A stretch of DNA of 64,000 nt from positions 36,656 through 100,655 of the forward strand of contig JAFZUT010000011.1 of assembly GCA_017618175.1 (NCBI GenBank), in the 5' to 3' direction. The position numbers and the translations under genes were made by a program. The notes beneath the pieces were generated by a model. It searched no databases. It saw nothing but the letters and a program-made list of their open reading frames with translations, and was not told where the DNA came from. Shown here in pieces: positions 5,883-64,000 of the stretch; position 1 is the stretch's first letter, and every line of letters starts with the position of its first letter. This stretch comes from Alphaproteobacteria bacterium. GTDB taxonomy: Bacteria; Pseudomonadota; Alphaproteobacteria; Rs-D84.

Positions 5883-5909
5883 TCAACAAGATACTAATGA
5901 TTTTTGTGT

Positions 5910-5938: not shown

Positions 5939-5989
5939 ATGCATCGTAGGTTTTATACAACAAGCAACAAATTAAAATGGAGGAATAAG

Positions 5990-37930: not shown

Positions 37931-38084
37931 CGGATTTTTGAAAAACGCTGCGTGTAATGCGGCAATCAATACCGATATGATGCAACGTATTGAAAACGGG
38001 TTCAAAAAACAGTGTTGTAAATAGGTATTGCCATTTGGTGTTTTCCGTGCTATGATTTTCCCACATAACCAAAAGGAAAGTAAT

Positions 38085-38897
38085 ATGTTATTAAAAGGTA
38101 AAAAGATTTTAATCACGGGTGTTGCGAATGATTGGTCTATGGCGTGGGCAATTGCAAAACGCGCACATGAAAACGGGGCGGAAATTGCCATGCCGTATGC
38201 TATGCCGGCGTTGGAAAAACGCGTGCGGCCGTTGGCGGAATCAATCGGTGCAAAATTCGTCCAAGAATGCAATGTGCAGAACGATGAACAAATGGATTCT
38301 TTGTTTGCAAATATCGAACGCGAATGGGGGCATTTGGACGGAATGCTGCACGCGATTGCGTTTTCCGATAAAAATGAATTGATGGGGCGCTATGTCGATA
38401 CTACGCGTGAAAATTTCAAAAACACAATGGATATTTCCGTATATTCTTTGGTTGATTTGACACGCCGGGCATCTAAGTTAATGACGGACGGCGGTTCAAT
38501 TGTGACATTGACATATTTCGGTGGGGAGAAGTCTGTGCCGAATTATAATGTTATGGGCGTGGCCAAGGCCGCGTTGGATGCATCGGTGCGTTATTTGGCA
38601 TCGGACCTGGGACGCGATAAAATTCGCATTAACGCAATCAGCGCCGGCCCAATTTTGACCTTGGCGTCCAGTGGCGTTGGCGGAATTAAAACTATGTTGC
38701 GCCTGAACGCGGAACAAACCCCATTGCGCCGCAATATGACATTGGACGATGTATCGGGTGCCGCGATGTATTTGTTCAGTGATTTGTCATCCGCCGTCAC
38801 CGGCGAAGTGCATCACGTTGATTGTGGTTATTCCACAACCGGTATGATGCCAAACGAATTAAAAGATGTTTTATTAAAGGCATTGGATAATCAGTAA
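38085..38897 (+). CDS. fabI: enoyl-[acyl-carrier-protein] reductase (NADH), FabI type
   Basis: MLLKGKKILITGVANDWSMAWAIAK...HAIAFSDK...YNVMGVAKAALDASVRYLA (Y-x6-K) ...SAGPI. RBS AAAAGGAAAG. Confidence 0.9.
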   Translation: MLLKGKKILITGVANDWSMAWAIAKRAHENGAEIAMPYAMPALEKRVRPLAESIGAKFVQECNVQNDEQMDSLFANIEREWGHLDGMLHAIAFSDKNELMGRYVDTTRENFKNTMDISVYSLVDLTRRASKLMTDGGSIVTLTYFGGEKSVPNYNVMGVAKAALDASVRYLASDLGRDKIRINAISAGPILTLASSGVGGIKTMLRLNAEQTPLRRNMTLDDVSGAAMYLFSDLSSAVTGEVHHVDCGYSTTGMMPNELKDVLLKALDNQ

Positions 38898-48880: not shown

Positions 48881-49022
48881 AAAATGCCTATGTTGAAAAT
48901 CGGGCGTTTTGACATTATCACCTAATTGAACTGTGCCGCGTATTTTGCAATCTCATTTTTTAAACTGGGGTCTGCGGGCAGTTCTGCAATTTTCTGCAGA
49001 AATCCGCCGTATTTTACATAGG

Positions 49023-49057
49023 TGGCTCACCAAGGAAAATGACACACGAATTAACAG
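49023..49057 (-). pseudogene. decayed remnant of the tRNA-Asn 3' end plus a degenerate att core (outermost junction of the island array)
   Basis: TGGCTC-accaaggaaaa-TGACACACGAATTAACAG. TGGCTC matches the first 6 nt of the fragment at 62358. The core matches TGACATACGGATTAACAG at 16 of 18 positions. Confidence 0.45.
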
Positions 49058-49261
49058 TGGCCCCCAGAAAATCGCAAAAATTTTATACGCGCCTTCGCAA
49101 TACTGCGGAATCTGCGGGTTTAAGCGTGTGTAGCTGTGTATCCACTGTGTAGCAAAAAAAATTGCACTATGATGTGTTTGTATGGCTTTAAAAACACCCA
49201 AAACCACATACTAAAAATCATTATAAAGGTATTTTGGTTTTAAATGAGACGTATAAACATA

Positions 49262-49289
49262 TTGACTTTGCTTTATTTTGTTCTACACT
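49262..49289 (+). promoter_or_regulatory. sigma70-like promoter of the ProRS-like operon
   Basis: TTGACT (49262-49267), 16-nt spacer, TACACT (49284-49289). Confidence 0.4.
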
Positions 49290-49312
49290 AGTGTTAGACA
49301 AGAGGTTGATTG

Positions 49313-50509
49313 ATGCGGCTATCATCTGTGCCATATTCTCAAAATATAACTTTTAATAACTTGTCTTCGTCGCTTTCCTGCAATCAAATATTATCGGATA
49401 CCAAATTGGTTCAACAGAGCAACGCTGGGCATATCATTTATACACCAATTATTCAAAAAATTAAAAGAAACGTAGAAAACATAATATTATCACATGCCGA
49501 ATCATACGGATTCAATGAGATGCTGTTTCCTGTTTTAATGGATGCAAAATTATTAGATATATCAGGGAAAACGGATGAATATGCAAACGAATTTTATGAT
49601 ATATCTGATAAAAATGCAAATCTGGTGGTTTCGCCTACAACCGAAGAACGGCTTATAGATTTTGTTTCACGTAATGGAACTTTATCACACAAAAATTTAC
49701 CTATGCGTTTTTCACAGGTTTCGAATGTATATAGAAATTTAAAAAGACCAGAAGGATTATATAAATCACGTGAAATTTCTTGTGTGGTTTTGACGGCTGT
49801 TGATGCGGGGCGTCAACAGTATTTAGAAACAATGAAAGATTTCAGACTATTATGCGAAGAAACATTCGCCGATATTGGCATTCCTAATTTTTATATTCAA
49901 GATAAAATGTCCGGGGCAATAGAGTTTTTCTATGAAACAGAATTGGCTGACCGACCGTTGGATAAAAGTATCATAAATAATTTTGGCAACAAGAACATTT
50001 TTGATACCCAGAAACAGTATGGCAGTTTATCTATGGGGTATCCCTTTTATCAAAGTGAAAAGTTTAATTTATTTTATACCGACAAAGACGGAACACGAAA
50101 ACAGCCAATTGTAAGTACGTACGGTATCGGAACCCAACGTTGTATTTTGGTAATGTTTGAATATGCCAAGAACGGCAAACCAGATGCTTTTAAGCAAAAG
50201 GTCAGACCATTTGATGTTGATATCGTTGTGTTGGCTAAGGATAAATATAATTCACACATTCAAACACTGGCGGATAAATTGCGTCAGAATGGTGTTCAAT
50301 ATTGCATAGATGATCGTAACAACAGCATGCGAGACAAGATGCGTTTTTCTGAATTTTTTTCAGTTCCTTGTCGAATTATTATCGGTGACAAAGAGATTCA
50401 ACAAAACCAATATGCTATCAAGCCGTTGGGAGATAATGAAGTAATAACGGCAAATTTTGACAGTGCATTAAACATAGCTAAACAATTAACACAGGAGAAA
50501 GTACGATGA
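49313..50509 (+). CDS. divergent prolyl-tRNA-synthetase-like class IIa paralogue with an anticodon-binding domain
   Basis: IIYTPIIQKIKRNVENIILSHAESYGFNEMLFPVLMD...VVSPTTEERLIDFV...HKNLPMRFSQVSNVYRNLKRPEGLYKSREI parallels ProRS motifs 1 and 2, but YRNL replaces FRDE. Motif 3 is GIGTQRCILVMFE. The C-terminal HGTP-type domain is VDIVVLAKD...LRQNGVQYCIDDRNNSMRDKMRFSEFFSVPCRIIIGDKE. Confidence 0.6.
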   Translation: MRLSSVPYSQNITFNNLSSSLSCNQILSDTKLVQQSNAGHIIYTPIIQKIKRNVENIILSHAESYGFNEMLFPVLMDAKLLDISGKTDEYANEFYDISDKNANLVVSPTTEERLIDFVSRNGTLSHKNLPMRFSQVSNVYRNLKRPEGLYKSREISCVVLTAVDAGRQQYLETMKDFRLLCEETFADIGIPNFYIQDKMSGAIEFFYETELADRPLDKSIINNFGNKNIFDTQKQYGSLSMGYPFYQSEKFNLFYTDKDGTRKQPIVSTYGIGTQRCILVMFEYAKNGKPDAFKQKVRPFDVDIVVLAKDKYNSHIQTLADKLRQNGVQYCIDDRNNSMRDKMRFSEFFSVPCRIIIGDKEIQQNQYAIKPLGDNEVITANFDSALNIAKQLTQEKVR

Positions 50510-51510
50510 TAAAACCGGCATCTTCTTGGAAACAACCAGAACAACATTTAGAACAATTGCTAACAACACCATGGTATCGTGCTCTTAACAAAATATTTTC
50601 TCAAATTTTATTGTTAACGCACGATTTTTATAAAACAGAAAATATCACACCAACAATTTTCCCAATAACGACAGGTTCTGTTAGCAGCCCGTTTGGTTTG
50701 GGTAGTGATTCTTTGCCGGTTAAAATCAATATTAAAAATAATGATATGTTTTTGGCAGATTCTATGCAATTTTCGTTAGAAATAGCAACCCGTTTGAACG
50801 ACAAGGGGGCATATTATATTATGCCGTCTTTTCGTGGTGAAAATATGGATGCGCGTCATCTTAATGAATTCGTCCATTCCGAAGTGGAAATCAAGGGTGG
50901 TTTGGATGATGTTATGTCTTTGGCAGAACGCTATATTAAATATTTAATTCGTGGTTTGAAAGATACTTGTTCCAAAGAAATAATGGAAATTTGTGGCACA
51001 ACAGAACATCTGGATAAAGTGTTAAATAAACCTTTTTATAAAATAAGATTTGAAGACGCTATGTGTGAATTGGATAGTGTTTCCAATGCATTTAAAGAAT
51101 TGGATAAAGATTTATATGCGATAACATCTGTTGGGGAACGCGCTTTGATAGATAAATATGGCGATTTTACGTGGATTACGCATATGCCATATAAGTCAGT
51201 CCCGTTTTATCAAGCCAAAGAAACAGGTACAGATTTTTCAATGACAGGTGATTTGTTGGCTGGTATTGGCGAAACGTTGGGTTGCGGTCAGCGTGTATTA
51301 AGTTCACAGGATGCTATTAACTCGCTGGATGAACACAATGTTGATAAATCTGGCTATCAATGGTATATAGATATGCGTGACATCCAACAAATCCAAACAG
51401 CTGGATTCGGTATGGGTATAGAACGCTTTATTTTGTGGTTGCTAAAACACAATGACATCCGCGATTGCACACTTTTGTTGCGCGATCATAACAATGTCGT
51501 TTTTCCTTAA
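50506..51510 (+). CDS. AsnRS/AspRS-type class IIb catalytic-core protein without the OB anticodon-binding domain
   Basis: Motif 2 is SFRGENMDARHLNEFVHSEVE. Then comes YQWYIDMRDIQQIQTAGFGMGIERFILWLLKHNDIRDCTLLLRD, compared with YxWYLDLRRYGTxPHxGFGLGFERLV....NIRDVIPFPR in AsnRS. The protein starts directly at the motif-1 region. The ATGA start/stop overlap with the upstream gene implies translational coupling. Confidence 0.65.
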   Translation: MIKPASSWKQPEQHLEQLLTTPWYRALNKIFSQILLLTHDFYKTENITPTIFPITTGSVSSPFGLGSDSLPVKINIKNNDMFLADSMQFSLEIATRLNDKGAYYIMPSFRGENMDARHLNEFVHSEVEIKGGLDDVMSLAERYIKYLIRGLKDTCSKEIMEICGTTEHLDKVLNKPFYKIRFEDAMCELDSVSNAFKELDKDLYAITSVGERALIDKYGDFTWITHMPYKSVPFYQAKETGTDFSMTGDLLAGIGETLGCGQRVLSSQDAINSLDEHNVDKSGYQWYIDMRDIQQIQTAGFGMGIERFILWLLKHNDIRDCTLLLRDHNNVVFP

Positions 51511-52475
51511 TGTTTTATAACAGTTAAAGAACCATCTGATATATTAACCGTCCCGCCCAACGGTAAAACTGTCATTGGATAGGTATGTCCAAAATCCACA
51601 TTAGCAATAACAGGGATATTTTTTAATTCTGGATGAATATTAAATATAGAAACTATATCATCTTTTGATATCTCACTTTTGCTTTCTGTACGACCAATTA
51701 TCAATCCGCGAACATTCTTAAACCACGGTTGATGAATAGTAGATTGCAGAATTCTGTCTAAGATGTGTTTATTACCACCTTCTATTTCTAATGCCAAAAT
51801 TAAATTATTATCAGTTGGTATATATTGTGTGCCATATAATAATTGAAATGTTGTCATTTCACCGCCAATCAAAGCCCCAGTGGCAGAACCAGAATTTATA
51901 ACCCAAAATCCATCGTTTTTATTAAAATGTCTGTCTTCTTGATTCATAAACCATTCTGGATCGTCGCTCCATTCCTGACATGATTGAACGGAAAATTCTG
52001 AATCATCAAATAAAATTCGTCTTAAATAATCAAGAGTATAATCTGCGCCATATTTCATACCAAGGCTGGAAAAATGTGGCCCATAATATGAAACAATACC
52101 TGTTTTTGCCAATATCGCGTTTTGTAATGCCGCGATATCAGAATATCCGATTAACATTTTTGGATTTTGCTTTATCAGTTCATAATCTATTGAATCTAAT
52201 AATTGGTTTGAATTAAAACCGCCAATAACAGTAAAGATTGCTTTTACATTCTTATCAGTATACGCATCGTGCAAATCTTGTATTCTGGCATCAATTGGGG
52301 ACGAAACAAAAGAATCAATGATACCTAAATTTTTACCAAAAGATACTTTTAATTCCATTTGTTCAAGACGTTCTGTAGCAATTTTTCTAACATCTTCACC
52401 TATGATTTGGTATGAAAAAGCAGGAGCAATAATGCGCACTTCATCGCCTGCTTTTAATTTTCGTGGAAAAATCAT
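51507..52475 (-). CDS. S66-family serine peptidase (LD-carboxypeptidase / microcin C7 immunity MccF family)
   Basis: LKAGDEVRIIAPAF near the N-terminus, nucleophile motif IGYSDIAAL, and C-terminal NVDFGHTYPMTVLPLG (catalytic His). I cannot tell LdcA from MccF by eye. Confidence 0.7.
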   Translation of the reverse strand: MIFPRKLKAGDEVRIIAPAFSYQIIGEDVRKIATERLEQMELKVSFGKNLGIIDSFVSSPIDARIQDLHDAYTDKNVKAIFTVIGGFNSNQLLDSIDYELIKQNPKMLIGYSDIAALQNAILAKTGIVSYYGPHFSSLGMKYGADYTLDYLRRILFDDSEFSVQSCQEWSDDPEWFMNQEDRHFNKNDGFWVINSGSATGALIGGEMTTFQLLYGTQYIPTDNNLILALEIEGGNKHILDRILQSTIHQPWFKNVRGLIIGRTESKSEISKDDIVSIFNIHPELKNIPVIANVDFGHTYPMTVLPLGGTVNISDGSLTVIKH

Positions 52476-52489
52476 TCTCGTCTCCTTGT

Positions 52490-53314
52490 TTAATTGTTTG
52501 TTCCAAATACAAAGATATTATTGCCACGTGCCGCAATATCGCCATTTTTGATATGTTGTTTTTCCATATCAAAAATTTGTTTAAATATTTTTTTATTTTC
52601 CAGTATGTCAGCAATTTCGCCCGTTTGTCCACGTAATTGTGTTTCTTGGTAACCCGGATAAATCAAATTTGGAAACCCTGAACAAAAATCTACTTTGATA
52701 TTATGCTTTTCCATTATGTTTTTAATACTGTCTGGTGAAAACATATTGATATAAGGCATTTGGTCTGTAAAACGTCCAGAACCAGATAAACATTTGTTTG
52801 CTTCGTCTACGTTGCCCAGTTTCGTATTAAAGAACGCAGCATGATACATATTTGGAGCCAGTGTGCAAATTATGCCACCTTTTTTAGTTATAGATTTTAA
52901 TTGGTCAAAGAAATTATCAATATCTGGTCCAACAAAACCGATAACATTGTGAAAATTGAACACGAAATCAAATTGTTGTTTTATATCTGATAAATCATTC
53001 AGATCTTGTAATATAAAGTTCCATCTGTCTTTATATGGTGCGGATTTTTGTTTTGCGACATCTAGCATTTCTTTGGAAAAGTCTATGGTAACACCAGAGC
53101 ATTCAGGAAATTCTTGTAATAATTTTTGTGACCATCGACCAGTTCCGCCACCCGCATCACAAAATCTAAAATTTTTCGGTAATTTTGGAATGATATATGT
53201 TTTTATAGAGTCCCATAACAAAGCATCAGATAAACGCCAGTAACTTTGATTTTCTACAAGATCATATTCAGAGGCTTTGTCGGCAAAATATTTTAATACG
53301 GATTCTTTGTACAT
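52490..53314 (-). CDS. class I SAM-dependent methyltransferase
   Basis: Motif I FCDAGGGTGRW, acidic post-I residue in VTIDFS, and motif II-like FDFVFNFHNVIGFV. Confidence 0.75.
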   Translation of the reverse strand: MYKESVLKYFADKASEYDLVENQSYWRLSDALLWDSIKTYIIPKLPKNFRFCDAGGGTGRWSQKLLQEFPECSGVTIDFSKEMLDVAKQKSAPYKDRWNFILQDLNDLSDIKQQFDFVFNFHNVIGFVGPDIDNFFDQLKSITKKGGIICTLAPNMYHAAFFNTKLGNVDEANKCLSGSGRFTDQMPYINMFSPDSIKNIMEKHNIKVDFCSGFPNLIYPGYQETQLRGQTGEIADILENKKIFKQIFDMEKQHIKNGDIAARGNNIFVFGTNN

Positions 53315-53330
53315 GCTTCACCCCTTTTGC

Positions 53331-54608
53331 TTATTTGCATTTGGTTTTTGTTACAAGTTGAATTAAATCAGAAACGCTCATTTGTTGAGTATTTCCTGTG
53401 GCACGGTCTTTTATTTCCAAATTACCGGTATTGAAAAAGTTTTTCCCGGCAATTATTTTATTTGGGATACCAATCAAATCGCTTTCTGCAAATTTATTTC
53501 CACCACGAACATTTTGCCGATCATCATACAGCAAATCAAAATTCGCGTTTTGTAATTGATGATATAAATTTTCAACCTGTGCCATTTCGGCATCTTTAAT
53601 CGCTAAAGAAATTAAATGCCATTCAAACGGGGCTATTTTTTCCGGCCACACCAAACCTTTATCGTCACTTAGACATTCTGCAACAGTTCCCATAACGCGA
53701 CTTGGGCCAATACCATAACACCCCATAATAACAGGTTTTGTTTGACCGTCTTTATCAACAAAATTGGCATTAAATGGTCCTGTAAAACGTGTGCCCAGTT
53801 TAAATATATTTCCTACTTCTACGGCGCGTCTTTGTTCAAAAGAATTTTCCATACCATCTGTGTAATTTGGAACAATGTCTCTTAAAGCCGCCTTGTCATC
53901 AATGATTTCGCGATTGATGGCTATTTTCGTTCCTGGTAAAATAAAGATTGTATCTTCACCGGCATCAGTCAATGTTTGAAATTCATGTGAATATTTTGCA
54001 AAAGCACCACCACTGGCATATGTAAAATATGTTTTATCGCCAATGCCGCAATTGGTATAAAACTTCATATACATTTCTGCCACCTTATCATAGTAAGAAT
54101 CTAAATCTTCTTGTGATGCGTGAAACGAATATAAGTCATTCATTCTAAATTCTTTACAACGAAACAACCCAGATTTAGAACGTGGTTCGTCCCTGAATTT
54201 ATTTTGAATTTGAAATACAGACATTGGTAAATCTTTATAAGAAGAAATAAAATTTGTCACAAATGGCGTAACAACTTCTTCGTTCGTTGGGCTTAAAGCA
54301 TAATCTTTATCGCCATGACCTTTTATTTTATATAAAACATCTATTTTATCCCAGCGTCCTGTTTTGTGCCATACATCTGCAGGTTGCAAAACAGGCATAA
54401 TAACTTCTTGACCATTTACTGTCATCATATACTGACGGATTAAATTTTCAATTTTGTTTAATGTTCTATAGCCCAACGGCATATACGAATAAATTCCGCC
54501 CATCAATTTATGAATAAAGCCCGCGCGTGTAAGCAGCTGGGCATTTTTAGACATTTCTTGGTTGTTAAATTCTTTTTGGGTTTTATAAAATAAACTACTT
54601 TGACGCAT
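53331..54608 (-). CDS. proS: proline--tRNA ligase, short bacterial form without the INS editing domain
   Basis: AGFIHKLMGGIYSYMPLGYRTLNKIENLIR...ALSPTNEEVVT...YKDLPMSVFQIQNKFRDEPRSKSGLFRCKEFRMNDLYSF (motif 2), GCYGIGPSRVMG (motif 3), and a C-terminal HGTP anticodon-binding domain. 425 aa. Confidence 0.85.
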   Translation of the reverse strand: MRQSSLFYKTQKEFNNQEMSKNAQLLTRAGFIHKLMGGIYSYMPLGYRTLNKIENLIRQYMMTVNGQEVIMPVLQPADVWHKTGRWDKIDVLYKIKGHGDKDYALSPTNEEVVTPFVTNFISSYKDLPMSVFQIQNKFRDEPRSKSGLFRCKEFRMNDLYSFHASQEDLDSYYDKVAEMYMKFYTNCGIGDKTYFTYASGGAFAKYSHEFQTLTDAGEDTIFILPGTKIAINREIIDDKAALRDIVPNYTDGMENSFEQRRAVEVGNIFKLGTRFTGPFNANFVDKDGQTKPVIMGCYGIGPSRVMGTVAECLSDDKGLVWPEKIAPFEWHLISLAIKDAEMAQVENLYHQLQNANFDLLYDDRQNVRGGNKFAESDLIGIPNKIIAGKNFFNTGNLEIKDRATGNTQQMSVSDLIQLVTKTKCK

Positions 54609-54828
54609 AGTATAGGCCTTTTTGTATGTTCTTTTAGTACCTACCTCTCTTTTGATTAGAGTAGCATGGCAAAGAAAAAAAGCAAGTTTTTTAAAAATGG
54701 TTTTACTGTGTAGCTAATATGTAGATTTTTTGCTTTTGGTGGTAATTAGCCACAAAAACACAAAAAAATTAGCAGACACACGGACTAAGGTTCGGTTTTC
54801 TTCGGTTTTTAAGAGGTTGTTTGTTGTG

Positions 54829-54850
54829 ACATACGGACTAGTCCGTATGT
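54829..54850. repeat. perfect 22-nt palindrome built from half of the att core
   Basis: ACATACGGACT|AGTCCGTATGT. With the preceding TG it shares TGACATACGGA with the 18-nt core TGACATACGGATTAACAG. Confidence 0.9.
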
Positions 54851-54964
54851 TTTGATATGTTTTTTGTAAAAATGGACATTTTTTGACTTTTGCAAACAGT
54901 TAATATTTAAACGAAATTCCGCAGAAATCCGCAATATTCAGCGTATGTAATTTGTCTATAAAAC

Positions 54965-54982
54965 TGACATACGGATTAACAG
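54965..54982. repeat. 18-nt att-core direct repeat (copy 2 of 3)
   Basis: TGACATACGGATTAACAG, identical to 62385-62402. It is the reverse complement of the tRNA-Asn anticodon-loop/variable region CTGTTAATCCGTATGTCA. Confidence 0.9.
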
Positions 54983-55260
54983 CTGCCCCTCAATGAATAT
55001 TTATTTTAATGTGCTTGAGTGTAAACCTAACGCCTTGTGTGCCACAGATGCCGTGGTGTTGAGGGATTTGGTTTTGTTTGGATTTGACTTAAAATGACAC
55101 AAAAATTTGTTCTAAAATTGTCCCAAAATATAACCTCTGTGTAGACCTTTTTTAAGATAGCAAAAAAGCCTTACAAAGCCCGATTTGACTGGATGTGACT
55201 GTATAAAGATAGTGTAGATTTGTATTTAAAAATTCACTTTATTTGTTAACAGAAATTCTA

Positions 55261-55289
55261 TTGCAAAAAACATAATTTTTTATTATGTT
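55261..55289 (+). promoter_or_regulatory. sigma70-like promoter
   Basis: TTGCAA (55261-55266), 17-nt spacer, TATGTT (55284-55289). Confidence 0.4.
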
Positions 55290-55324
55290 AAATTTGAAAA
55301 AATAATCTAAAGAGGTATATGATA

Positions 55325-55753
55325 ATGACGTGGTCTGATTTCTTTTCGTCTCAATTATTTGGGATTATTCTTGGGGCATTATTGACATCCGGTTTTACAT
55401 GGTTTGTAGACTTTTTAAAAAGCAAACGAGATAGGGGACTTTATATAAAACAAAAACGAGAAGAATTATATATCAATGTGTGCCAGGTTTTAATGGAACA
55501 TGAAAAGTATCGTCGTTCCCATGAATGGCCAAAGAAATGTAAAACAATGTTTAATGCATTGCAGGGGCAAATGTTGATATATGCATCTAAGAAGATTTAC
55601 GGTGCATACTATGCTTTGGATACAGAAATATGTAATTGTTACGATACAATGCGTAGTCAAAAGCAGATAGAAGCAAAATCAAATGAAATAGCAGATAAGA
55701 TAGTAAAACTAGCAACTAAAATGCGTAAAGAGTTGGGGATAAAGGGGGGGTGA
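55325..55753 (+). CDS. hypothetical single-pass membrane protein
   Basis: The second ATG is chosen for its spacing from AGAGG. TM helix LFGIILGALLTSGFTWFV, then a helical K/E-rich domain. Confidence 0.5.
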   Translation: MTWSDFFSSQLFGIILGALLTSGFTWFVDFLKSKRDRGLYIKQKREELYINVCQVLMEHEKYRRSHEWPKKCKTMFNALQGQMLIYASKKIYGAYYALDTEICNCYDTMRSQKQIEAKSNEIADKIVKLATKMRKELGIKGG

Positions 55754-55965
55754 TGTTGTGTTTCTGTGAATCGTGTATGTTTTCTCAAAAAATATATACT
55801 AATTTCAGCACGAAAATCACATCTAAAATCTAACCTGAAATCAAGATTGATAATTTAGTTAATAACAATACTGATTTCTAGAAAAAATAAAATTTCTGTT
55901 TTTGTACGGGTGTGTCAGAGGAAAAAACAATTTTTAATATTTTCTGTTAAAAACGAAAAAGACTA

Positions 55966-55993
55966 TTGAAAAATATGGTTTTTTTGTTATATT
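55966..55993 (+). promoter_or_regulatory. sigma70-like promoter of the three-gene operon
   Basis: TTGAAA (55966-55971), 16-nt spacer, TATATT (55988-55993). Confidence 0.4.
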
Positions 55994-56018
55994 TCATATT
56001 GAAAAAGGATATTTGATA

Positions 56019-56633
56019 ATGAGAAATTGGTGGTATTCATTTGTTGAACATTTTAGAACTTGTTCCTCATGGTTTGGGGCGATAGTTTCTTGGTTGGCTA
56101 TTTTTTTCGTTTTTATTACAGCGATGGTTGTTTTTGCTAAGCCGTATGTATCTCGGATTTATGCAGATACTTATATAGTGGCAGATACAGATATAAATTT
56201 AGTTACAGAAAAAGATAGAAAATCGATAAATAATTTAATAATGAAAAACAAAATTGTGCCGGTTTCGATTGTATATGAAGATACACTTAGGTATTATGAG
56301 GAAATAATAGCAATTTTAATAGCTTTATTAGGTGTGTTTGCGGTTGTTTCTTGGTTTTTTATGGGTGGACGTATGCGAGAGGGCTTGCACAAAGAAATTC
56401 AATCAAAATGGTTTGATATTTGTTTAAATGACAAGATGTCCAAATTATTAAAGTCTGATATGGGGGATTATTTAGCTGAACAATTTGATGATGAAAAAAT
56501 TCGAAGTATAGCACGTGAAGAATTTGAAGGTATGACTAATAAGCTTTCCGATGATTTACAAGAAAAGAATAATGCTGTGCTGCATCTTAAACGAAATTTG
56601 CGGGTAAGATCAAAAAAAGTGGGAGGTAAATAA
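56019..56633 (+). CDS. hypothetical two-pass membrane protein (first gene of the ImmA/beta-protein operon)
   Basis: ATG 56019 lies 9 nt after AAGGA. TM helices FGAIVSWLAIFFVFITAMVVF and IIAILIALLGVFAVVSWFF. Its stop overlaps the next start (TAATG). Confidence 0.5.
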   Translation: MRNWWYSFVEHFRTCSSWFGAIVSWLAIFFVFITAMVVFAKPYVSRIYADTYIVADTDINLVTEKDRKSINNLIMKNKIVPVSIVYEDTLRYYEEIIAILIALLGVFAVVSWFFMGGRMREGLHKEIQSKWFDICLNDKMSKLLKSDMGDYLAEQFDDEKIRSIAREEFEGMTNKLSDDLQEKNNAVLHLKRNLRVRSKKVGGK

Positions 56634-57199
56634 TGGCTACAGATTTGTCTAATTGGTCAAATTTTATCTCAAATAAAGATATTGAAACTTATGCAAAAAA
56701 ACAGAAAAAGAACAACGTATCTAAGACGTTAAGTGCTCAAGATGTCTGGACCGCTGCGTTAGAAGCAAAAAAAACAGAACCGTTAGATATAGAATGGGTT
56801 GCAGAAAAATTATTTGGCTTAAATGTTGTGAAAAGGGATTTAGGAGAAGCTTCAGGTTTTTTAAATGTGTTGGATGATCAGTGGTGTATTTTTGTTAATA
56901 AATTTGAAAACGAACGGAGACAACGTTTCACTATTGCTCATGAACTAGGACATTTCGTATTGCATAAAGACAAGAGCATAACCTCAAAAGATATTATATT
57001 TTTTAGAGATGAGAATACCAATATTGAAGAACAAGAAGCAAATAATTTTGCTTCAGAGTTATTGATGCCTGAAAGAAAGATTCGTGAATATATAAAAGAG
57101 GGATATAATACAATATCTTTGTTGGCAGATAAGTTTTGTTTGTCGACACCTGCAGTGCGTTATAGACTTTACAAACTTGGTTTAATATCGGAGTATTGA
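56633..57199 (+). CDS. ImmA/IrrE-family (M78, DUF955) zinc metallopeptidase
   Basis: FTIAHELGHFVLH (HExxH) followed by EEQEANNFASELLMPERKI, the family's second signature. Confidence 0.8.
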   Translation: MATDLSNWSNFISNKDIETYAKKQKKNNVSKTLSAQDVWTAALEAKKTEPLDIEWVAEKLFGLNVVKRDLGEASGFLNVLDDQWCIFVNKFENERRQRFTIAHELGHFVLHKDKSITSKDIIFFRDENTNIEEQEANNFASELLMPERKIREYIKEGYNTISLLADKFCLSTPAVRYRLYKLGLISEY

Positions 57200-57201
57200 T
57201 T

Positions 57202-58332
57202 ATGTCAAAATATTGTTATTTCCCGATACTGAAAACACGCCCGTCAGAAGTCAATGCTTACGACTCTTTGGCAGATAATATTAAAGAAGAGGTGTTGCCT
57301 ATTATTGAAATGACGGGAGAACTTGGTTATACATATTCTAAAAATTGTAAAGATGAAAATTGCAGAGGAGTTAGACGCCCTGGGGATATAAATAAAAAAA
57401 TTACGAAAATTTTAGATTTTATGGGGAATAAAAGGTTTGTTTTAGATATAACAGATGATTCATCTTTGAAATATGATGGTTTAAGCGCCACAGGGAGTGG
57501 TTTGTTGAATCCAAATAATGGATATAGAAATTGGCTAGATTTTTTACAACGAAACGATACTTTTAAACGTTTAGTAATTCCTACAATTCAATTTGACACA
57601 ACCTATCGGCAAGATGTACAAATGCAGATAGAAGAATTAAAAAATCATTTTGATTATATGGCTATAAAATTACCATCTACAACGGATGCCAAGATTATAA
57701 ATCAGGTTATAGATTTTGTTACTAATATTATAGGGGTAAATAAATTATTTGTGATATTAGATTTTGATTTTATAAAATCTTTTACCCAAAAAGAAACGTC
57801 TGAATATGTAAAGCCAATCGATGTATCAAAAATAAAAGCTTTGATCCCTGTCTCTTCTAGTTTTCCTGCATCGGTTATACACATAGATAAAATTTGTGGT
57901 AGTATAGATATTTTAGAAAACCAACTCAGTGATTGTATAAGACAAACCTTGGGAAATAAGGTTTTTCATGGTGATTTTTCTTCTATACACCCAACTCGTT
58001 ATGAGATGGGCGGCGGAGGTTGGTACCCAAGAATAGATTATATAGAGAGAGATTTACGAACAAAAAAACCTATTAAATATCATTTCTTTAGAGGAACTGG
58101 CCGAAATACCAGTTCTGAATATGTTGAGTTAGCAAAACGGGTAACAGAAGCTAAAAACTATGTTCCCATAAGCGAATTTAATGTAGCCGGAGATTTGCAA
58201 ATTAAGAAAAAAGCCAAAGGAGAAATGGAAGGTAAGGCACCTTCTTATTGGATTGCTGTAAGATCTAATCTTTATCTAACCATGCAGTATTTATATTTGA
58301 GAAGACAACCGGATGCTTTTTTGTATTTGTAA
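57202..58332 (+). CDS. 'beta protein'-like (PF14350 / sce7725-like) protein of unknown function
   Basis: The N-terminus YCYFPILKTRPSEVNAYDSLADNIKEEVLPIIEMTG fits the Y.P.LK.K.GE..AL..L.......PLIE pattern I remember for this family. GGAG lies 8 nt upstream of the ATG, and the gene is coupled to the ImmA-like gene. Confidence 0.45.
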   Translation: MSKYCYFPILKTRPSEVNAYDSLADNIKEEVLPIIEMTGELGYTYSKNCKDENCRGVRRPGDINKKITKILDFMGNKRFVLDITDDSSLKYDGLSATGSGLLNPNNGYRNWLDFLQRNDTFKRLVIPTIQFDTTYRQDVQMQIEELKNHFDYMAIKLPSTTDAKIINQVIDFVTNIIGVNKLFVILDFDFIKSFTQKETSEYVKPIDVSKIKALIPVSSSFPASVIHIDKICGSIDILENQLSDCIRQTLGNKVFHGDFSSIHPTRYEMGGGGWYPRIDYIERDLRTKKPIKYHFFRGTGRNTSSEYVELAKRVTEAKNYVPISEFNVAGDLQIKKKAKGEMEGKAPSYWIAVRSNLYLTMQYLYLRRQPDAFLYL

Positions 58333-58942
58333 TATAATTTAAATCCTCAAGTATGACCTTTTGCCCTTTTTCTTTAAGAAATAATTTATAGCCATCTCCA
58401 TAGCGTCTTTGTAAAGATATGATTATTTGATTTTGAATGTTCACTGTCGTGCATTCTTCGATAGCTCTTTGTTTAAGTTGTTCAAATGCGGATTTTTTAT
58501 ATTTTGGTAGCAACTTTTCTAAATCTTTGCGCCATAGAACAGAAGTCATATATGTTTTATCTAAGGAAATTTTTTTCCTTGCTTTTCTTTTTAATATTAA
58601 CTTGTTGTCGGAGCTTATTACTATAAGGCCTATGTTTTTTGGTAGTTTAGTAAGTTCCTTAGATTTTGCAAATTTGCACGAGTAAACCAAATAAACAAAA
58701 TTGAAAGTTTTTCGGTAATCTGATATTTGATCTAGCATAGTTTTAAGATTGTCGTATTTGCTTTTAATTTCAAAACCTATGGACATTCCATTATTTATCG
58801 CGACAAGATCTGCAGAACGTTTACAGCACAAAAACGGCAATTCGTTTACTATCAGCTCATATTTAGCGTGTTTAAGCAGAAAGTCAATAAGCTCTGCTTT
58901 GATAAAATTTGCTTCTCCGTATTTCCCCTTTTTTAATCCCAT
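58265..58942 (-). CDS. PD-(D/E)xK-fold nuclease-like protein (MmcB / sce7726-like)
   Basis: RSADLVAINNGMSIGFEIKSKYD gives a D...E-x-K arrangement. It is the last gene of the minus-strand operon. Its 3' end overlaps the convergent gene by 68 nt. Confidence 0.45.
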   Translation of the reverse strand: MGLKKGKYGEANFIKAELIDFLLKHAKYELIVNELPFLCCKRSADLVAINNGMSIGFEIKSKYDNLKTMLDQISDYRKTFNFVYLVYSCKFAKSKELTKLPKNIGLIVISSDNKLILKRKARKKISLDKTYMTSVLWRKDLEKLLPKYKKSAFEQLKQRAIEECTTVNIQNQIIISLQRRYGDGYKLFLKEKGQKVILEDLNYITNTKKHPVVFSNINTAWLDKD

Positions 58943-58983
58943 GACACGCTCTCGTAATTTTATGATGTTATATATGTGTTATT

Positions 58984-59526
58984 TTAATGTTGTGTTGGAA
59001 CAGGTAAACCAAACTTTTGTAATGGGATATATTCAAAATAATATGAACAACCGACCGAAACTATATAATCTAAGACATCTTGATAACAAGGTTGTTTGAA
59101 CCAGTCGCTTAATAAGTAAATATACTCAACTTCCATGTTCAACTGTGACAACAATTTTTTATATTGTTTTTTCTTGAAATCACAAGTTTGCAATTTTTCG
59201 TCTACAGAACCGGCAACACGTTGAAACTTACATTCAATAACAAAAAACGTGTTGTTTATAACAACATAAATAGAATCATCCGGTAATAATTTCTTAGATA
59301 AAATAGATTTCCAATCAATTCCACGATATTCTAAAAATTTATATAAAGCAGATTTCTTGAATATTGATGCGACTTCTTCGCCTTTATATAACACTGACAC
59401 CCAACCGCGTTTATCATCAACACAATTGTACCCTGGTTGTGAACATAAAAATGTACGCAAATCAGTTTTACCTTCAAAAACTAAACCTGTTTTGGTATTT
59501 GCTCCGCCAATTCCGTTCGCTTTCAT
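58984..59526 (-). CDS. putative type II restriction endonuclease (PD-(D/E)xK motif)
   Basis: LPDDSIYVVINNTFFVIECKFQ (D...E-x-K). Its ATGA overlaps the upstream methylase gene, in the position dpnB occupies in DpnII-type cassettes. Confidence 0.45.
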   Translation of the reverse strand: MKANGIGGANTKTGLVFEGKTDLRTFLCSQPGYNCVDDKRGWVSVLYKGEEVASIFKKSALYKFLEYRGIDWKSILSKKLLPDDSIYVVINNTFFVIECKFQRVAGSVDEKLQTCDFKKKQYKKLLSQLNMEVEYIYLLSDWFKQPCYQDVLDYIVSVGCSYYFEYIPLQKFGLPVPTQH

Positions 59527-60308
59527 TTTTTATCCTTTTTTTCAGATATATCATATAACCTTTTTTCAGCCAGTTCAACAAATTGTGGCTCTTGGTCTAT
59601 ACCCACAAATAGACGGCCATGTTTTAATGCTGCAACCCCCGTCGTTCCACTGCCCATAAACGGATCTAAAATCAAGTCGCCTGGATTTGTAGAAGCCAAA
59701 ATAATGCGTTCCAACAATTCCACTGGTTTTTGAGTCGGGTGTTTGCCAAATTTCTTTTCTTCTTTGGTTGGCGTTCCAATAGCCCAAACACTTCGCATTT
59801 GGCAACCTGGCTTTTTAATAAAGTCTTTTTGGAAATCTCCATTTTTCATGGCTTCATAATTAAATGTGTGTTTTGCTTTTTTATTTTTGCGCGCCCAAAG
59901 CAATGTCTCGTGGCTTGCGGTAAAGTACCTGCAGGACATATTCGGACTGGCATTTGGCTTAAACCAAGTTATGTCGTTCAAAATATGAAAACCAAGTAAT
60001 TGCATAGCAAATCCGCACGAATATATGCTGTGGTATGTGCCGCTAATCCACAATGTTCCATTTGGTTTCAAAACACGATGACATGCACAAAGCCACTTTT
60101 TATGAAATTCAAAATCATCACTAAGACCATGTGATTTATCCCAATCGCCTTTGTTTACAGACACAACGCAACCATTTTGACATGTGATACCACCATTAGA
60201 AAGCATGTATGGAGGGTCCGCAAAAATCATATCAAATGTATTTTCTGGAAGTTCAAGCAACTTTTCAAGGCAATCTGCACAATAAAGACGATACTGTTTC
60301 TTAGTCAT
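59523..60308 (-). CDS. beta-class N6-adenine/N4-cytosine DNA methyltransferase (DpnA-like)
   Basis: Motif IV FADPPY comes first. The SAM-binding motif LDPFMGSGTTGVAA is near the C-terminus, which is the beta-class order. Confidence 0.8.
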   Translation of the reverse strand: MTKKQYRLYCADCLEKLLELPENTFDMIFADPPYMLSNGGITCQNGCVVSVNKGDWDKSHGLSDDFEFHKKWLCACHRVLKPNGTLWISGTYHSIYSCGFAMQLLGFHILNDITWFKPNASPNMSCRYFTASHETLLWARKNKKAKHTFNYEAMKNGDFQKDFIKKPGCQMRSVWAIGTPTKEEKKFGKHPTQKPVELLERIILASTNPGDLILDPFMGSGTTGVAALKHGRLFVGIDQEPQFVELAEKRLYDISEKKDKK

Positions 60309-61233
60309 AATTTGTAATCAATAATTCACGAATTGCATCACGACCGTCTGCCTTGGAATTGATAAGACGTCTGGCCAAAATACGGTTAATTTTATAATCT
60401 TTGTATAAATCATCAAAGAACGGGTCTTCAATATAATTGGTTGGGTCTGAATTGCTCAACATCTGCAAAGCCCCCATTTGGTGACATGTGTCAAAGACCT
60501 GTTTCAAACGTTCCTGTTCAGCATCGTCAAAATCACCCACGGCATAAGAATTGAAAGATGATGTTTCACGAATTGGACGATATGGAGGGTCATAATAAAT
60601 GAATGTGTCAGCTTTTACATAATCTGGTGTTGCGCCAAAGTCTGCTTGTATAATAGTAGCAATTTGCAAAGCTTCGGATACGTTGCGTAAGTTTTCTTCG
60701 TCCAAGATACGTGGGTTTGTATATTTGCCCATCGGAACATTGAATTTGTTTTTGCTGTTTACGCGGAACAAACCATTAAAGCATGTCCGGTTCAAGAATA
60801 TCGTTAGGGCAGCGCGGCGAACAAAACTTGTGCGGTATACATTGGCATCAACATTTTTATCACAATCGTTATATTCATCGCGTCTGGCATAATAATACGC
60901 CTTTGTATCATCTGTATGTCTGTATTCGGTCTGAATCTTGGTCAACTCAACAATCAAACTTTCCACATCGCGTTTTATAACGTTGTAAAGAATCACTAAT
61001 TCTGGATTGATATCAAATAAAAACGCTTCCTGGATTTGATATCTATTGTATATGTCAAAGAATACGGCACCGCCACCAACAAAGGGTTCTATATACCGTT
61101 TGATGCCCCCCATCTTTAGTTTCAAAGGAAGTTTTTGTTCAATTTGTTCCAACAATTGCCCTTTGCCGCCGGCCCATTTTAACACAGGGCGGCATTCTGT
61201 ATAATCTGGCAATCTGGCTGGTATCGCTATCAA
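60301..61233 (-). CDS. Dam-family (alpha-class, D12) DNA adenine methyltransferase
   Basis: LKWAGGKGQLL, EPFVGGGAVFF (motif I), then YYDPPY (motif IV). The start is TTG, 6 nt after GGAAAGGA. Confidence 0.85.
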   Translation of the reverse strand: MIAIPARLPDYTECRPVLKWAGGKGQLLEQIEQKLPLKLKMGGIKRYIEPFVGGGAVFFDIYNRYQIQEAFLFDINPELVILYNVIKRDVESLIVELTKIQTEYRHTDDTKAYYYARRDEYNDCDKNVDANVYRTSFVRRAALTIFLNRTCFNGLFRVNSKNKFNVPMGKYTNPRILDEENLRNVSEALQIATIIQADFGATPDYVKADTFIYYDPPYRPIRETSSFNSYAVGDFDDAEQERLKQVFDTCHQMGALQMLSNSDPTNYIEDPFFDDLYKDYKINRILARRLINSKADGRDAIRELLITNYD

Positions 61234-61293
61234 AACTCATCCTTTCCTTGTTGATATATTAGAACAAAATGCCGTATAAAATCAAGGGGTTTA

Positions 61294-62025
61294 TTAGAAT
61301 TTTAATATAACATCGGCTATCTGTTTCACGTCTTTCAAAGTCATACTAGCCTGCATATTCAAGCCCCTTGGAACATTGATTTCAAGTATCTTATCAGCAG
61401 TTTCTTGTGTGATATTTAACCAATTTATTATCTTCGTAGTATCAACGATAAAAATATTTTGAATATAAGTTTTATTTTTATCTGGGATAAAGAAACAGGT
61501 TATGGTTTCGGGACCATGATGCTTAACTATTTCCGCGTACCGCCTCAAGTCCAACCATATGCTATTCCCCTTTTTTATTTCTATATTTACCCCATTGCAA
61601 ACAGCATCGAAATATCTGTTTTCTTGGTCTTGCCATAGTGTTTCTTTGCATAAATCTTTTTCATAGGTGTTAGGGCGCTTTACCCAATCACCAACAAGCT
61701 TTTTATCTAATGTCGAAATTATCAGTTCTTTCCAATTACTTTGCACTTTACAAATCCTATACGACATAATTCTATCATATATGACATGTTTTTGCAATTG
61801 TGATGTATCCGTATTTATGTGTATGTGTTTCCACAAAGCAGCCATTTGAAATAATTTGTAATACAAACGGCGAAATAACCAAGTTTGTTTGCAAGTTAGG
61901 TTGTCGTTTTGTTTATGGCGCACATTCGATTCCAATTCGCGCAAAGATCGGCATGCTGCGAAGTAGAGCATGATGAAATCGGTTTTGTGGTTTGGTTTGA
62001 TATCTTTAAAATGTTTATACTTCAT
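61294..62025 (-). CDS. hypothetical protein with a PD-(D/E)xK-like motif (first gene of the methylase operon)
   Basis: RYFDAVCNGVNIEIKKG (D...E-x-K). RBS AAAGGGGTGG. Confidence 0.35.
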   Translation of the reverse strand: MKYKHFKDIKPNHKTDFIMLYFAACRSLRELESNVRHKQNDNLTCKQTWLFRRLYYKLFQMAALWKHIHINTDTSQLQKHVIYDRIMSYRICKVQSNWKELIISTLDKKLVGDWVKRPNTYEKDLCKETLWQDQENRYFDAVCNGVNIEIKKGNSIWLDLRRYAEIVKHHGPETITCFFIPDKNKTYIQNIFIVDTTKIINWLNITQETADKILEINVPRGLNMQASMTLKDVKQIADVILKF

Positions 62026-62311
62026 GTGCCACCCCTTTAAAAGTTGTTGTATTTGTCCTTATCTTTCAACAAAAGTCCAGTCATTTCTTGAAATTCTGAT
62101 AATTAAAAATGTATACATTTTGTATACAGCAGATATACGGACTTCGTTCCGTTGTTCTCAGGGCTGTATAATCTTCTGAAAGGCTTATAAATACTGGGTT
62201 GGCTATCATTTTTATAGGCGTTTTTTCTACAGGTCGTGTATAACTCCGGTATAATTGTTTGCTATTTTTAACACTTTTTTGCGTTTTATACCAGAACAAA
62301 TTGCCGCAAGC

Positions 62312-62350
62312 AAAAACAAAAGAAAATGCCGTAATTCCAAAGAATTACGG
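62312..62350 (-). terminator. rho-independent terminator following the tRNA-Asn 3' fragment
   Basis: On the minus strand: GCCGTAATTC-ttg-GAATTACGGC followed by ATTTTCTTTTGTTTTT. Confidence 0.65.
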
Positions 62351-62357
62351 CTAATTT

Positions 62358-62402
62358 TTGGCTCGGGCAACTGGACTCGAACCAGTGACATACGGATTAA
62401 CA
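62358..62402 (-). pseudogene. 3' fragment of tRNA-Asn(GUU), anticodon loop through CCA; an att junction, not a complete tRNA
   Basis: The reverse complement is CTGTTAATCCGTATGTCACTGGTTCGAGTCCAGTTGCCCGAGCCA. The loop, variable region and T-arm match E. coli tRNA-Asn as I recall it. The sequence 5' of it (gattttatcattaggt) cannot form the anticodon stem, D-arm or acceptor strand. Confidence 0.8.
62385..62402. repeat. 18-nt att-core direct repeat (copy 3 of 3)
   Basis: TGACATACGGATTAACAG, identical to 54965-54982. Confidence 0.9.
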
Positions 62403-62788
62403 GACCTAATGATAAAATCAAAAAATCTGCTGTAAGCCACAGGTTCCGCCGGTTTCCCGTTCTTAACATGTTTTCAGTGTGCGGATTAGTGCGCCTCACC
62501 CCAAAAACATGTCTGAGCCAGCCATATAGCACATGATATTTTATATGAAATCATTTCTGATATCAATATAAAAATGCCTGTGGATATCATTCACGATTTC
62601 AAATATGAAACAAATGCCGATTATTTATCCGATTTTGAAAATGGTTCTTATATGAAATCAAAAATAACATACCAGATTTGAAGAACGATTTATAAAAAAC
62701 AATGTAGATATTTTTAGATATTTGTGAATAGAAAAATCCGATTTTATCCATACCATAAAAAATGTACAACAAACCAAAAGGACACATC

Positions 62789-62977
62789 ATGAATCCAAAA
62801 GAACCATTGTTAACACCAAAACAAGTTGCAAAAATTATTGGAATATCCGAATACAGCATCGCCAGATATAGAAAACTGGGGATTGGACCAAAATATTTGC
62901 GTTTTGGGGAAAAATTGATCCGGTACAGAAAAGAAGATGTTGAAGAATGGCTGAACCGGTTCAATGATGAATTATAA
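62789..62977 (+). CDS. AlpA/excisionase-family helix-turn-helix protein
   Basis: MNPKEPLLTPKQVAKIIGISEYSIARYRKLGIGPKYLRFGEKLIRYRKEDVEEWL is the typical AlpA/Xis MerR-like wHTH. RBS AAAGGA. Confidence 0.75.
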   Translation: MNPKEPLLTPKQVAKIIGISEYSIARYRKLGIGPKYLRFGEKLIRYRKEDVEEWLNRFNDEL

Positions 62978-63058
62978 AAAATCGCACAACCCGTTCTTTT
63001 TACTTGCTTTTTAGTTTTTTAATGGCAGTGTGTGTGTCGCAACAAAGAGGTATGCAAA

Positions 63059-64000
63059 ATGACTGAATGGAAATGCAAAAGAAGAATTTTTAAGGATTCA
63101 TGGATTGCACAATTAAAATCCGATGTGAATCTGCAAATTATGGATGGAACCATTCCGGGCCTGCAGTTAAGATATTATGCAAAAACCAAAGGGATCAGTT
63201 TTTTTCTTAATTGCAGAGTAGGAACAGGTCATGAAAGAAAAACTTTAATGCTGGGCAAATGGGCCGATTTTGTGGATGTGGGGGAAGTTTATAAAAGAGC
63301 CAAAGACATCCGCGCAATGATACTTAAAAACAAAGTATTAGCCACAGTAAGAGGCACAGCAACAAATGATGATGCCACAGAAACGGCGAAAGGATTGATC
63401 CGTAATGCACAAGAGAAAATATTTGAAAACGCTTTCGCGGTTTATATGGACAAGTATGCATCTGTACACAAAAAACCAAGTACGCAGCAATTAAATCAAT
63501 TGCATTTCAGATTGTATTTAAGACCGGTATTTGGAAAAAGATATTTGGAAGATCTTACAGAAAGAGATATCATGGATGCATATACCGAATGGGCCAAGAA
63601 AACATCTTTTTCAACCGCGAATAAAATATTGTCGTTGTTATCAAATTTTTGGGATTGGTGTGAATCATATGGATATATGCCAAGACGATCAAATTTATGT
63701 GGATTTATTAAAAAAGGTCATGGGCCAAAATATAGAGCCACAGTATTGGATTTGGATGGATATAAACGACTGTTCAAATCATTGGATAATGGCCCGGCAA
63801 AATCGAGAATGCATCCAAGATTATTCCGGGTATTAAAAGTTTTGGCATTGACCGGATGTCGTTGTTCAGAAATTCGGGATTTGGAAATGGATGAGGTATC
63901 ATTGCCAGAAAAGAAAATCCACTTGAAAGATAGTAAAACTGGGCCAAGAGATGTGATGCTATCAGATGATGCAATAAAAGAATTGGAATTTGCAATGAAA
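63059..64000 (+). CDS. int: tyrosine recombinase / phage-type integrase, 3'-truncated by the window edge
   Basis: My own translation (the ORF has no stop in the window, so it is absent from the track). ATG 63059 lies 8 nt after AAGAGG, and 314 codons are open to nt 64000. The N-terminal arm-binding-like region is GLQLRYYAKTKGISFFLNCRVGTGHERKTLMLGKW. The core-binding region is YMDKYASVHKKPSTQQ..LHFRLYLRPVFGKRYLEDLTERDI. Catalytic box I is LKVLALTGCRCSEIRDLEMDEVSLPEKKIHLKDSKTGPRDVMLS. Confidence 0.85.
   Translation, partial: MTEWKCKRRIFKDSWIAQLKSDVNLQIMDGTIPGLQLRYYAKTKGISFFLNCRVGTGHERKTLMLGKWADFVDVGEVYKRAKDIRAMILKNKVLATVRGTATNDDATETAKGLIRNAQEKIFENAFAVYMDKYASVHKKPSTQQLNQLHFRLYLRPVFGKRYLEDLTERDIMDAYTEWAKKTSFSTANKILSLLSNFWDWCESYGYMPRRSNLCGFIKKGHGPKYRATVLDLDGYKRLFKSLDNGPAKSRMHPRLFRVLKVLALTGCRCSEIRDLEMDEVSLPEKKIHLKDSKTGPRDVMLSDDAIKELEFAMK

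Follow-up and report, generated by a model that had tools for sequence, protein, structure and literature searches.

Tandem islands and an apparently unrebuilt tRNA-Asn gene at an integration hot spot of a rumen alphaproteobacterium

What becomes of a tRNA gene that mobile elements enter again and again, and which copy serves asparagine decoding if the newest arrival does not rebuild its target? These questions are raised by the right-hand part of the window, the 64,000-nucleotide stretch of DNA analysed here, which corresponds to C2:36656-100655 of a metagenome-assembled genome (MAG) of 892 kb in 29 contigs, 95.9% complete. The host is a rumen alphaproteobacterium known only as a MAG, with a genome of ~0.9 Mb; its close sequence records come from goat, sheep and buffalo forestomach, and the sequencing runs with matching sequence are ruminant gut metagenomes. 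Between 49.0 and 64.0 kb the window covers the downstream flank of an integration hot spot at tRNA-Asn(GUU), where an aminoacyl-tRNA synthetase (aaRS)-paralogue/MccF island (segment 1, 49058..54964), a defence island (segment 2, 54983..62327) and the integrase-proximal end of a P2/Mu-like temperate myovirus, here called Phi (segment 3, 62404..64000, + strand), follow one another. Our account, which we consider probable with moderate confidence, is that of a tandem accretion array joined by Phi in an insertion that did not reconstitute the tRNA gene. Throughout, G denotes congener genomes, L extracted loci or contigs, C contigs, and N, V and W tRNA-Asn alleles; tRNA genes were called with ARAGORN and protein domains with Pfam and NCBIfam.

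The evidence that carries this account is a tRNA-Asn(GUU) gene, N, found in two pieces. Its 3' half and terminator occupy 62328..62403 on the - strand, on which 62403-62359 reads CTGTTAATCCGTATGTCACTGGTTCGAGTCCAGTTGCCCGAGCCA, the 45 nt of tRNA positions 32-76 from anticodon loop to CCA, followed by an intrinsic terminator with a 10-bp stem and a T-run (62351-62328). No 5' half adjoins 62359-62403, and ARAGORN called no tRNA-Asn in the window. An initial annotation of this DNA had correctly described a 45-nt 3' fragment with a terminator and without a 5' half, its coordinates (62358-62402) being one base off. The matching 5' half lies inverted on contig C16, where 455-418 reads TCGGGCATAGTTCAGTCGGTAGAACAACGGACTGTTAA and is preceded by a strong promoter, TTGACT-17-TATACT. 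Its stem sequence ACGGA pairs with TCCGT of the 3' half in the window, and the joined halves are identical at 76 of 76 positions to the intact tRNA-Asn of G001, G007, G009 and G017. At the 3' half the junction runs from ...cattaggt into CTGTTAATCCGT, and at the 5' half from ACGGACTGTTAA into aattgacc. The 7-bp anticodon-loop sequence CTGTTAA (62397..62403, - strand, and C16:418-424), which marks the crossover site, is alone common to both halves, nothing more being shared with the inserted DNA. Because the partners share only this loop, gene N is cut in the anticodon loop and not rebuilt. The Phi side carries no tRNA sequence past the 7-bp loop, so Phi does not present a classical reconstituting attP; segment 2 may have had one. 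Two expectations of the initial annotation fail here: that segment 3 regenerated the 3' half, since the gene is split at the loop with its 5' half at C16:418-455, and that an intact tRNA-Asn with the same core ends segment 3, since the nearby intact gene is a different allele, inverted relative to the 5' half.

The DNA on the far side of the 3' half is phage. A left arm (62404-62761) separates the junction from an alpA/HTH_17 gene (62762-62977), and a tyrosine integrase of 425 aa with Phage_integrase and SAM-like domains follows from 63032 to 64309, past the window end; both genes had been anticipated from the sequence. The integrase begins 629 bp from the anticodon-loop junction, placing its att site in overlap with the host tRNA gene. 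Contigs with an identical integrase continue into a ParB-methyltransferase, a GpA-type terminase, a portal, Phd/ParE, an S49 protease, a Mu gpT-like capsid, gpV/W/J/I baseplate proteins, a fibre, sheath, tube, tape measure and gpU/X/D, a gene set taken from precomputed Pfam families on near-identical contigs, of which the MAG holds pieces (C2 tail, C12, C8/C4, C27 and C18). By this gene content, segment 3 is identified as a P2/Mu-like temperate prophage. C8 and C4 hold two overlapping head-to-baseplate versions, each 95-96% identical to reference contigs, an overlap caused by a pair of related prophages or by mixed strains. The junction of TTAACAG with ACCTAATG occurs in 11 independent contigs, and what adjoins it on the left is of five kinds: an N 3' half plus another island (L067, L070, L071), an orphan core of 17 nt (L069, L072), a W 3' half (L068, L074, L076, L077, G041), a V 3' half (L096), and segment 2 of this window. 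Because the junction recurs beside five contexts, Phi is taken to be mobile and to target the tRNA-Asn anticodon stem-loop. At its other end, conserved phage DNA stops ~220 bp beyond a PLD-like gene, with variable cargo further on (scaffold_27/G041, L142 walk), namely resolvase and ABC transporter genes in one lineage and Dnd-like genes in another. A conserved stretch of ~220 bp upstream of the PLD-like gene, where the phage DNA passes into this cargo, is GC-rich and hairpin-dense (L084:9741-9964; L142:8745-9006).

If N is broken, what replaces it? The sole intact tRNA-Asn that ARAGORN calls in the MAG is variant V, at the start of contig C16 (C16:3-78), whose anticodon stem ATGGA/TCCAT is a compensated version of the 28:42 stem pair relative to N. 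A distance of 340 bp separates V from the 5'-half junction, toward which V is transcribed, and V is inverted relative to the 5' half. In G148 and G160 the block made up of the N 5' half, the spacer and V matches at 97-99%, against 74-86% for the flanking chromosome; the block has therefore changed place recently. G022 has an identical V placed between an integrase of 47% identity and an N 3' fragment. The island concerned (L051, G022:C33, 8591-15999) combines a Phi-family integrase with an intact variant tRNA-Asn at the same hot spot and also holds a two-partner-secretion/filamentous-haemagglutinin-like gene of >1986 aa.

Whether V was carried into the genome with the phage stands at about even odds. 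The mobility of the block and the G022 arrangement speak for it. Reciprocal exchange at N makes the DNA joined to the 5' half the partner of the phage left end, and in run X2 the depth of the spacer (21.8) matches that of Phi (20.7), with the chromosome at 26.5-27.7; depths were taken from Logan unitigs and contigs of sequencing runs. The spacer and the Phi left arm also share a 14-nt inverted word, a length reached in one of 300 shuffles, and the G041 contig has homologues of V-upstream genes between Phi and V. The competing explanation, credible though on the doubtful side, is that V and its spacer are no part of the phage. They would belong to a second island in tandem with Phi, inside the split N, or V would be a chromosomal gene and the junctions the product of integrase-mediated inversion in which N recombined with a Phi att site adjacent to V. 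Several observations weigh against our account. No contig joins Phi to V, C2 ending inside the phage and C16 beginning 2 nt before V. On a scaffold 100% identical to C16, at least 13 kb upstream of V lack phage structural genes and contain acetyltransferase genes together with a lysozyme-like gene and one of 1249 aa, part of this set adjoining uppS in another strain. Phi is present in three samples that lack this spacer at >=85% identity, one of them with V, another spacer and then an inverted 5' half. No tRNA half lies within ~20 kb to the right of the last conserved phage gene (G041/scaffold_27), and no attP junction with the spacer-core-alpA pattern was found in IMG/VR or JGI contigs. The competing explanation gains from the gene content upstream of V and the three samples lacking this spacer, from the upstream neighbours of V, which differ between genomes, from the use of V and W elsewhere as Phi integration targets, and from the core-core inversion documented in G041. 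What lies upstream of V is unreadable from the runs, since Logan contigs (k=31) cannot span the tRNA; that DNA was reached with an Ogt neighbour as anchor. The pattern for V had no match in IMG/VR, and the JGI scan returned one true match, in which Phi is joined to the V 3' half.

The G041 rearrangement concerns allele W and runs W5(+)-core-spacer(-)-W3(-)-core-alpA, with the 3' half and spacer inverted between inverted cores, immediately next to alpA-int. Reversing this 380-bp inversion gives tRNA, spacer, core, alpA and int, an order in favour of a link between spacer and phage, and the block looks like an integrase-made inversion that breaks the tRNA gene. An inversion of the whole prophage was rejected; it would imply mismatched chimeric tRNAs, and the local 380-bp inversion fits perfectly. 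The inverted block lies on G041:C20 (L117-L120, flipped coordinates 5594-6013) with a spacer of 337 bp, and recurs at L074:1181-1600, where it follows an N-type 5' half. A bolder and doubtful extension is that tRNA-Asn function in this clade has been handed to a small mobile cassette consisting of promoter, intact tRNA, ~340-bp spacer and loop core. If so, Phi-family integrases would shuffle all loop cores, whether in host genes, cassette copies or orphan halves, with splits, nested insertions and G041-type 380-bp invertible segments that break or restore the cassette tRNA as outcomes. Such a system would amount to a recombinase-operated tRNA switch, or to a dependence module tying the cell to mobile DNA.

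A different style of element is seen among relatives of the integrase in IMG/VR, which are 54-67% identical; one has a promoter and 5' half beside alpA-int. This is the phage contig L087, in which the promoter and 5' half (L087:1-90) stand directly beside alpA and an integrase of 54% identity. Tandem arrays of promoter and tRNA-Asn 5' half also occur upstream of an intact gene in L045 (G007:C2:115, 3683, 7392 and 15157), with a similar array in L161 (G172:C29:2077 and 5594). Together with L087, these arrays appear to be a mirror image, the 5' half and not the 3' half being what the element supplies.

Were the older segments placed at the same site? Exact copies of the 18-mer TGACATACGGATTAACAG stand at 54965-54982 and 62386-62403, and a copy matching at 16 of 18 positions stands at 49040-49057. 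All three copies share one orientation; the chance expectation is 0.03, and three copies arose in none of 100 shuffles. These are direct att-core copies derived from the target tRNA, and they delimit the segments. The outermost att-type copy (48975..49057, - strand) comprises the degenerate core, an acceptor-like remnant (TGGCTC at 49023-49028 on the + strand, that is, GAGCCA) and GCGGATTTCTGC, a terminator-like motif; the stretch 48993-49251, which contains this left att remnant, is swapped for a NUDIX gene in two other assemblies of the species. The middle copy (54900..54982, - strand) consists of the exact core, 31 nt and a hairpin. The 70 nt to the left of the 49040 and 54965 copies align gaplessly and in register with 37 of 70 identical, ~5 standard deviations above a null of 17.8 +/- 3.7, a score of 37 or more being reached in only 3 of 35,860 windows. 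The flank motif common to both, GCAGAAATCCGC, folds on the tRNA strand into a weak terminator-like hairpin (54934-54919). Base composition changes at the same place, with G+C of 0.40-0.51 left of 49 kb and 0.30-0.385 from there to the window end, the mean falling from ~0.45 to ~0.33 at 49.0 kb. The initial annotation had listed the three cores, the related flanks, the TGGCTC remnant and the AT-rich shift, and all of these stand. In both inner copies, tRNA identity covers positions 32-49 and ends abruptly after 18 nt. Because it stops so sharply, the inner copies are not simply decayed complete 3' halves. The edge at position 49 suggests that these elements never rebuilt the tRNA, or that they entered an already displaced fragment; it does not fit tRNA-rebuilding elements and is a point against our account.

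These observations bear on the classical model, in which each attP carries a tRNA 3' half, rebuilds the gene and pushes older 3' halves outward, so that an intact N-type tRNA-Asn is expected to close segment 3. Consistent with it, the fragment at 62359-62403 is complete and has its own terminator, some congener elements have an intact tRNA-Asn at one boundary and a 45-51-nt 3' fragment at the other (for example G004, G014 and G007:C15), and the inner copies retain a terminator-like hairpin near the expected distance. It conflicts with the DNA right of 62403, which has no 5' half, the matching half lying elsewhere and joined to non-tRNA DNA; with the sole intact tRNA-Asn of the MAG, which is a different allele; and with the abrupt loss of identity past position 49 in the inner copies. 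We regard this model as unlikely for the array, and for segment 3 the split halves already refute it.

It is very improbable that the inner 18-mers are copies of a scattered protein-binding motif (TGACATACGGA) rather than att scars. The 11-mer TCCGTATGTCA does form inverted repeats at 54826-54850, adding a further copy there, and many copies stand beside the att region of the related phage contig L088, but both inner copies also contain the loop heptamer and share the 70-nt homologous flank in register, and between-strain similarity stops exactly at 54983. A chance or motif origin of the cores was rejected on the shuffles, the flank homology and this breakpoint. The inverted repeats of TGACATACGGA/TCCGTATGTCA (tRNA positions 39-49) around att regions, in the window and at L088:230-920, may be candidate binding sites for an integrase or accessory protein. 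That the split itself is an artefact of assembly or binning, with halves from different strains and a collapse or chimera around a repeated tRNA, is hardly credible: the MAG is fragmented at the locus with C16 starting at the tRNA, C8 and C4 are overlapping phage variants, and Logan unitigs of the tRNA are common to many organisms, but both junctions were recovered independently in several assemblies (5'-half/spacer/V in G148, G160, scaffold_6045 and scaffold_27; 3'-half/phage in at least seven others), and both junction unitigs have similar depth in source-like runs.

How independent are the segments of one another? Segment 2 is integrase-less and strain-variable, and in two contigs of the same species (L100 and L102) segment 1 and the 18-nt core are followed by unrelated DNA exactly from 54983. 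Because other DNA begins at this position, segment 2 is a replaceable unit bounded by the core, and the cores are real recombination junctions. Segments vary independently between strains with breakpoints at cores, as the swap of segment 2 and the five partners of the phage junction illustrate. The Logan depth of segment 2 is below that of its flanks (7.5 vs 10; 18 vs 27.7). No joint skipping segment 1 or segment 2 between cores was found in Logan contigs of the four runs inspected, contigs that drop rare forms, and no excised form or empty site of either segment was seen; the initial annotation's suggestion of mobilisation in trans thus finds no support.

Domain content marks segment 2 as a defence island. 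After two ORFs with no assigned function (55319-55753 and 56013-56633) come an M78 peptidase (56633-57199) and a Beta protein (57196-58332), which together are PD-Lambda-2 B/C-like. On the - strand follow a P4 cII-like/sce7726 protein (58265-58942), a 180-aa PD-(D/E)XK protein (58984-59526), an N6_N4 methyltransferase (59523-60308) and a D12 methyltransferase (60301-61233). The last three may form a DpnII-type restriction-modification set; both methyltransferases score strongly, and the endonuclease candidate matches only weakly (24.6 bits). The tRNA-proximal gene (61294-62025, - strand) encodes 243 aa, and its homologues lie directly downstream of tRNA-Asn in G004, G009 and G014.

Segment 1, also integrase-less, carries five genes. 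On the + strand are a divergent ProRS/ThrRS-like class II aaRS-like gene (49310-50509) and an OB-less AsnA/AsnRS-core-like gene (50506-51510); on the - strand are an MccF-like S66 LD-carboxypeptidase (51507-52475), a SAM methyltransferase (52490-53314) and a second ProRS (53331-54608), a paralogue with 38% identity to the ProRS on C9. This gene set looks like biosynthesis of, or immunity to, an inhibitor of the aminoacyl-nucleotide type. GTGTAGC arm-like repeats mark both ends of the segment (49128, 49147 and 54708, 3 of 11 genome copies), and the repeat is also present at the end of the element that replaces segment 2 in other assemblies. Segment 1 was found in 16 of 16 same-species contigs recovered, with only its left att remnant varying, and its AsnA-like gene has orthologues in only 13 of the 201 genus genomes over which gene distribution was scored. 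The complete cluster of five genes lies directly against a tRNA-Asn 5' half in G056 and beside a P4-type integrase in G215, and in G082 and G172 tRNA-Asn 5' halves lie near it. Segment 1 is accessory, and across the genus its cluster is carried on different islands. A 445-aa AsnRS homologue was not found in the MAG, although ~35 of the 201 congeners have one, and Asn-tRNA is presumably made by the transamidation route in this host. The absent homologue makes the AsnRS-core-like gene of segment 1 more curious.

Across the 40 relatives in which tRNA-Asn fragments were scored, 5' or 3' fragments are common and contigs often break at tRNA-Asn. Together with the replacement of segment 2 at 54983 and the patchy distribution of segment 1, this bears out the earlier proposal that tRNA-Asn is a repeated integration site. 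In G017, G003 and G013 (L056-L058), tRNA-Asn is directly upstream of the homologue of the gene at window positions 38028-38897 (88-91% amino-acid identity). Because it is not beside that homologue in this genome, the chromosomal position of tRNA-Asn has changed within the genus. A flavodoxin gene was tried as a synteny anchor and discarded as too variable.

In what order might the locus have been built? The boundaries of segments 1 and 2 are seen directly, and the following history would account for them. Segment 1 would be an older island that lost its integrase and lies between two homologous att-type copies, each made of an 18-nt core, ~31 nt of flank and a weak terminator. Segment 2 would be a defence island gained by earlier accretion at this site and probably the source of the present 3' half and terminator. 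The tyrosine integrase of Phi would then have recombined with the anticodon loop of N, leaving the 3' half and terminator at 62328-62403 and displacing the promoter and 5' half to C16 (418-455, inverted), while intact V would take over Asn decoding. As in tRNA-dependent lysogeny, the promoter-V-spacer-core cassette may have arrived together with the inserted DNA; a second element or the chromosome would be the alternative source. The array would in sum be a product of tandem site-specific accretion whose newest event was non-reconstituting.

How does this locus compare with known systems? The asn tRNA genes of Enterobacteria recurrently receive islands with P4-type integrases and short direct repeats, such as the Yersinia HPI and Klebsiella ICEKp, which recombine at the tRNA 3' end and keep the tRNA intact. 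The crossover here, unlike in those islands, lies in the anticodon loop. A second comparison is the accretion of integrative elements and cis-mobilizable elements (CIMEs) at tRNA genes (Pavlovic 2004; Bellanger 2011; reviewed in PMC5704250). Head-to-tail segments delimited by att-core copies from one target gene, inner segments that keep att-type ends without an integrase, an integrase-bearing element at one end and independent variation are found in both settings, and segments 1 and 2 may be regarded by analogy as accreted integrase-less islands in the CIME sense. In contrast to those systems, the array has no conjugation or mobilisation genes, its integrase-bearing partner is a tailed phage, its inner cores cover only tRNA positions 32-49, and its newest event breaks the target gene. 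Cis-mobilisation is known for CIMEs, whereas the segments here are known from sequence, with no excision seen. Dehalococcoides is reported to have tandem genomic islands at ssrA (PMC3146451), which are alike in repeated integration at a single small-RNA gene of a small genome and unlike in that the target is a tmRNA.

The newest event is closest in kind to tRNA-dependent lysogeny, described in actinobacteriophages (Fionnbharth/K4, cluster L and others; Guerrero-Bustamante & Hatfull 2024, PMC10865867), in which a tyrosine integrase recombines at a ~10-bp core, the host tRNA is not reconstructed and the phage supplies a same-isotype tRNA. Here too, a tyrosine integrase uses an attB that overlaps a host tRNA gene, the core is short (7 bp), no tRNA is rebuilt and an intact same-isotype tRNA is present with the insertion. 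The differences are a Gram-negative alphaproteobacterial host and a P2/Mu-like myovirus, the use of orphan halves and other alleles as targets, and a replacement copy at the att junction that is inverted relative to the core; moreover, the tRNA is carried by the phage in those systems, whereas for V the position is known and a phage origin would be inferred. If our reading holds, tRNA-splitting integration extends past its only described setting to uncultured, genome-reduced gut Alphaproteobacteria and to a P2/Mu-like myovirus, layered on an ordinary accretion array. In annotation, half-tRNAs beside integrases should first be matched with their partners on other contigs, and only then should an island be called classical. 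These 0.9-Mb genomes have here a main entry point for defence systems and for the unusual aaRS-paralogue/MccF cluster. The locus adds a new example to two phenomena already known, accretion in tandem at a tRNA gene and non-reconstituting integration, and is not a new kind of element.

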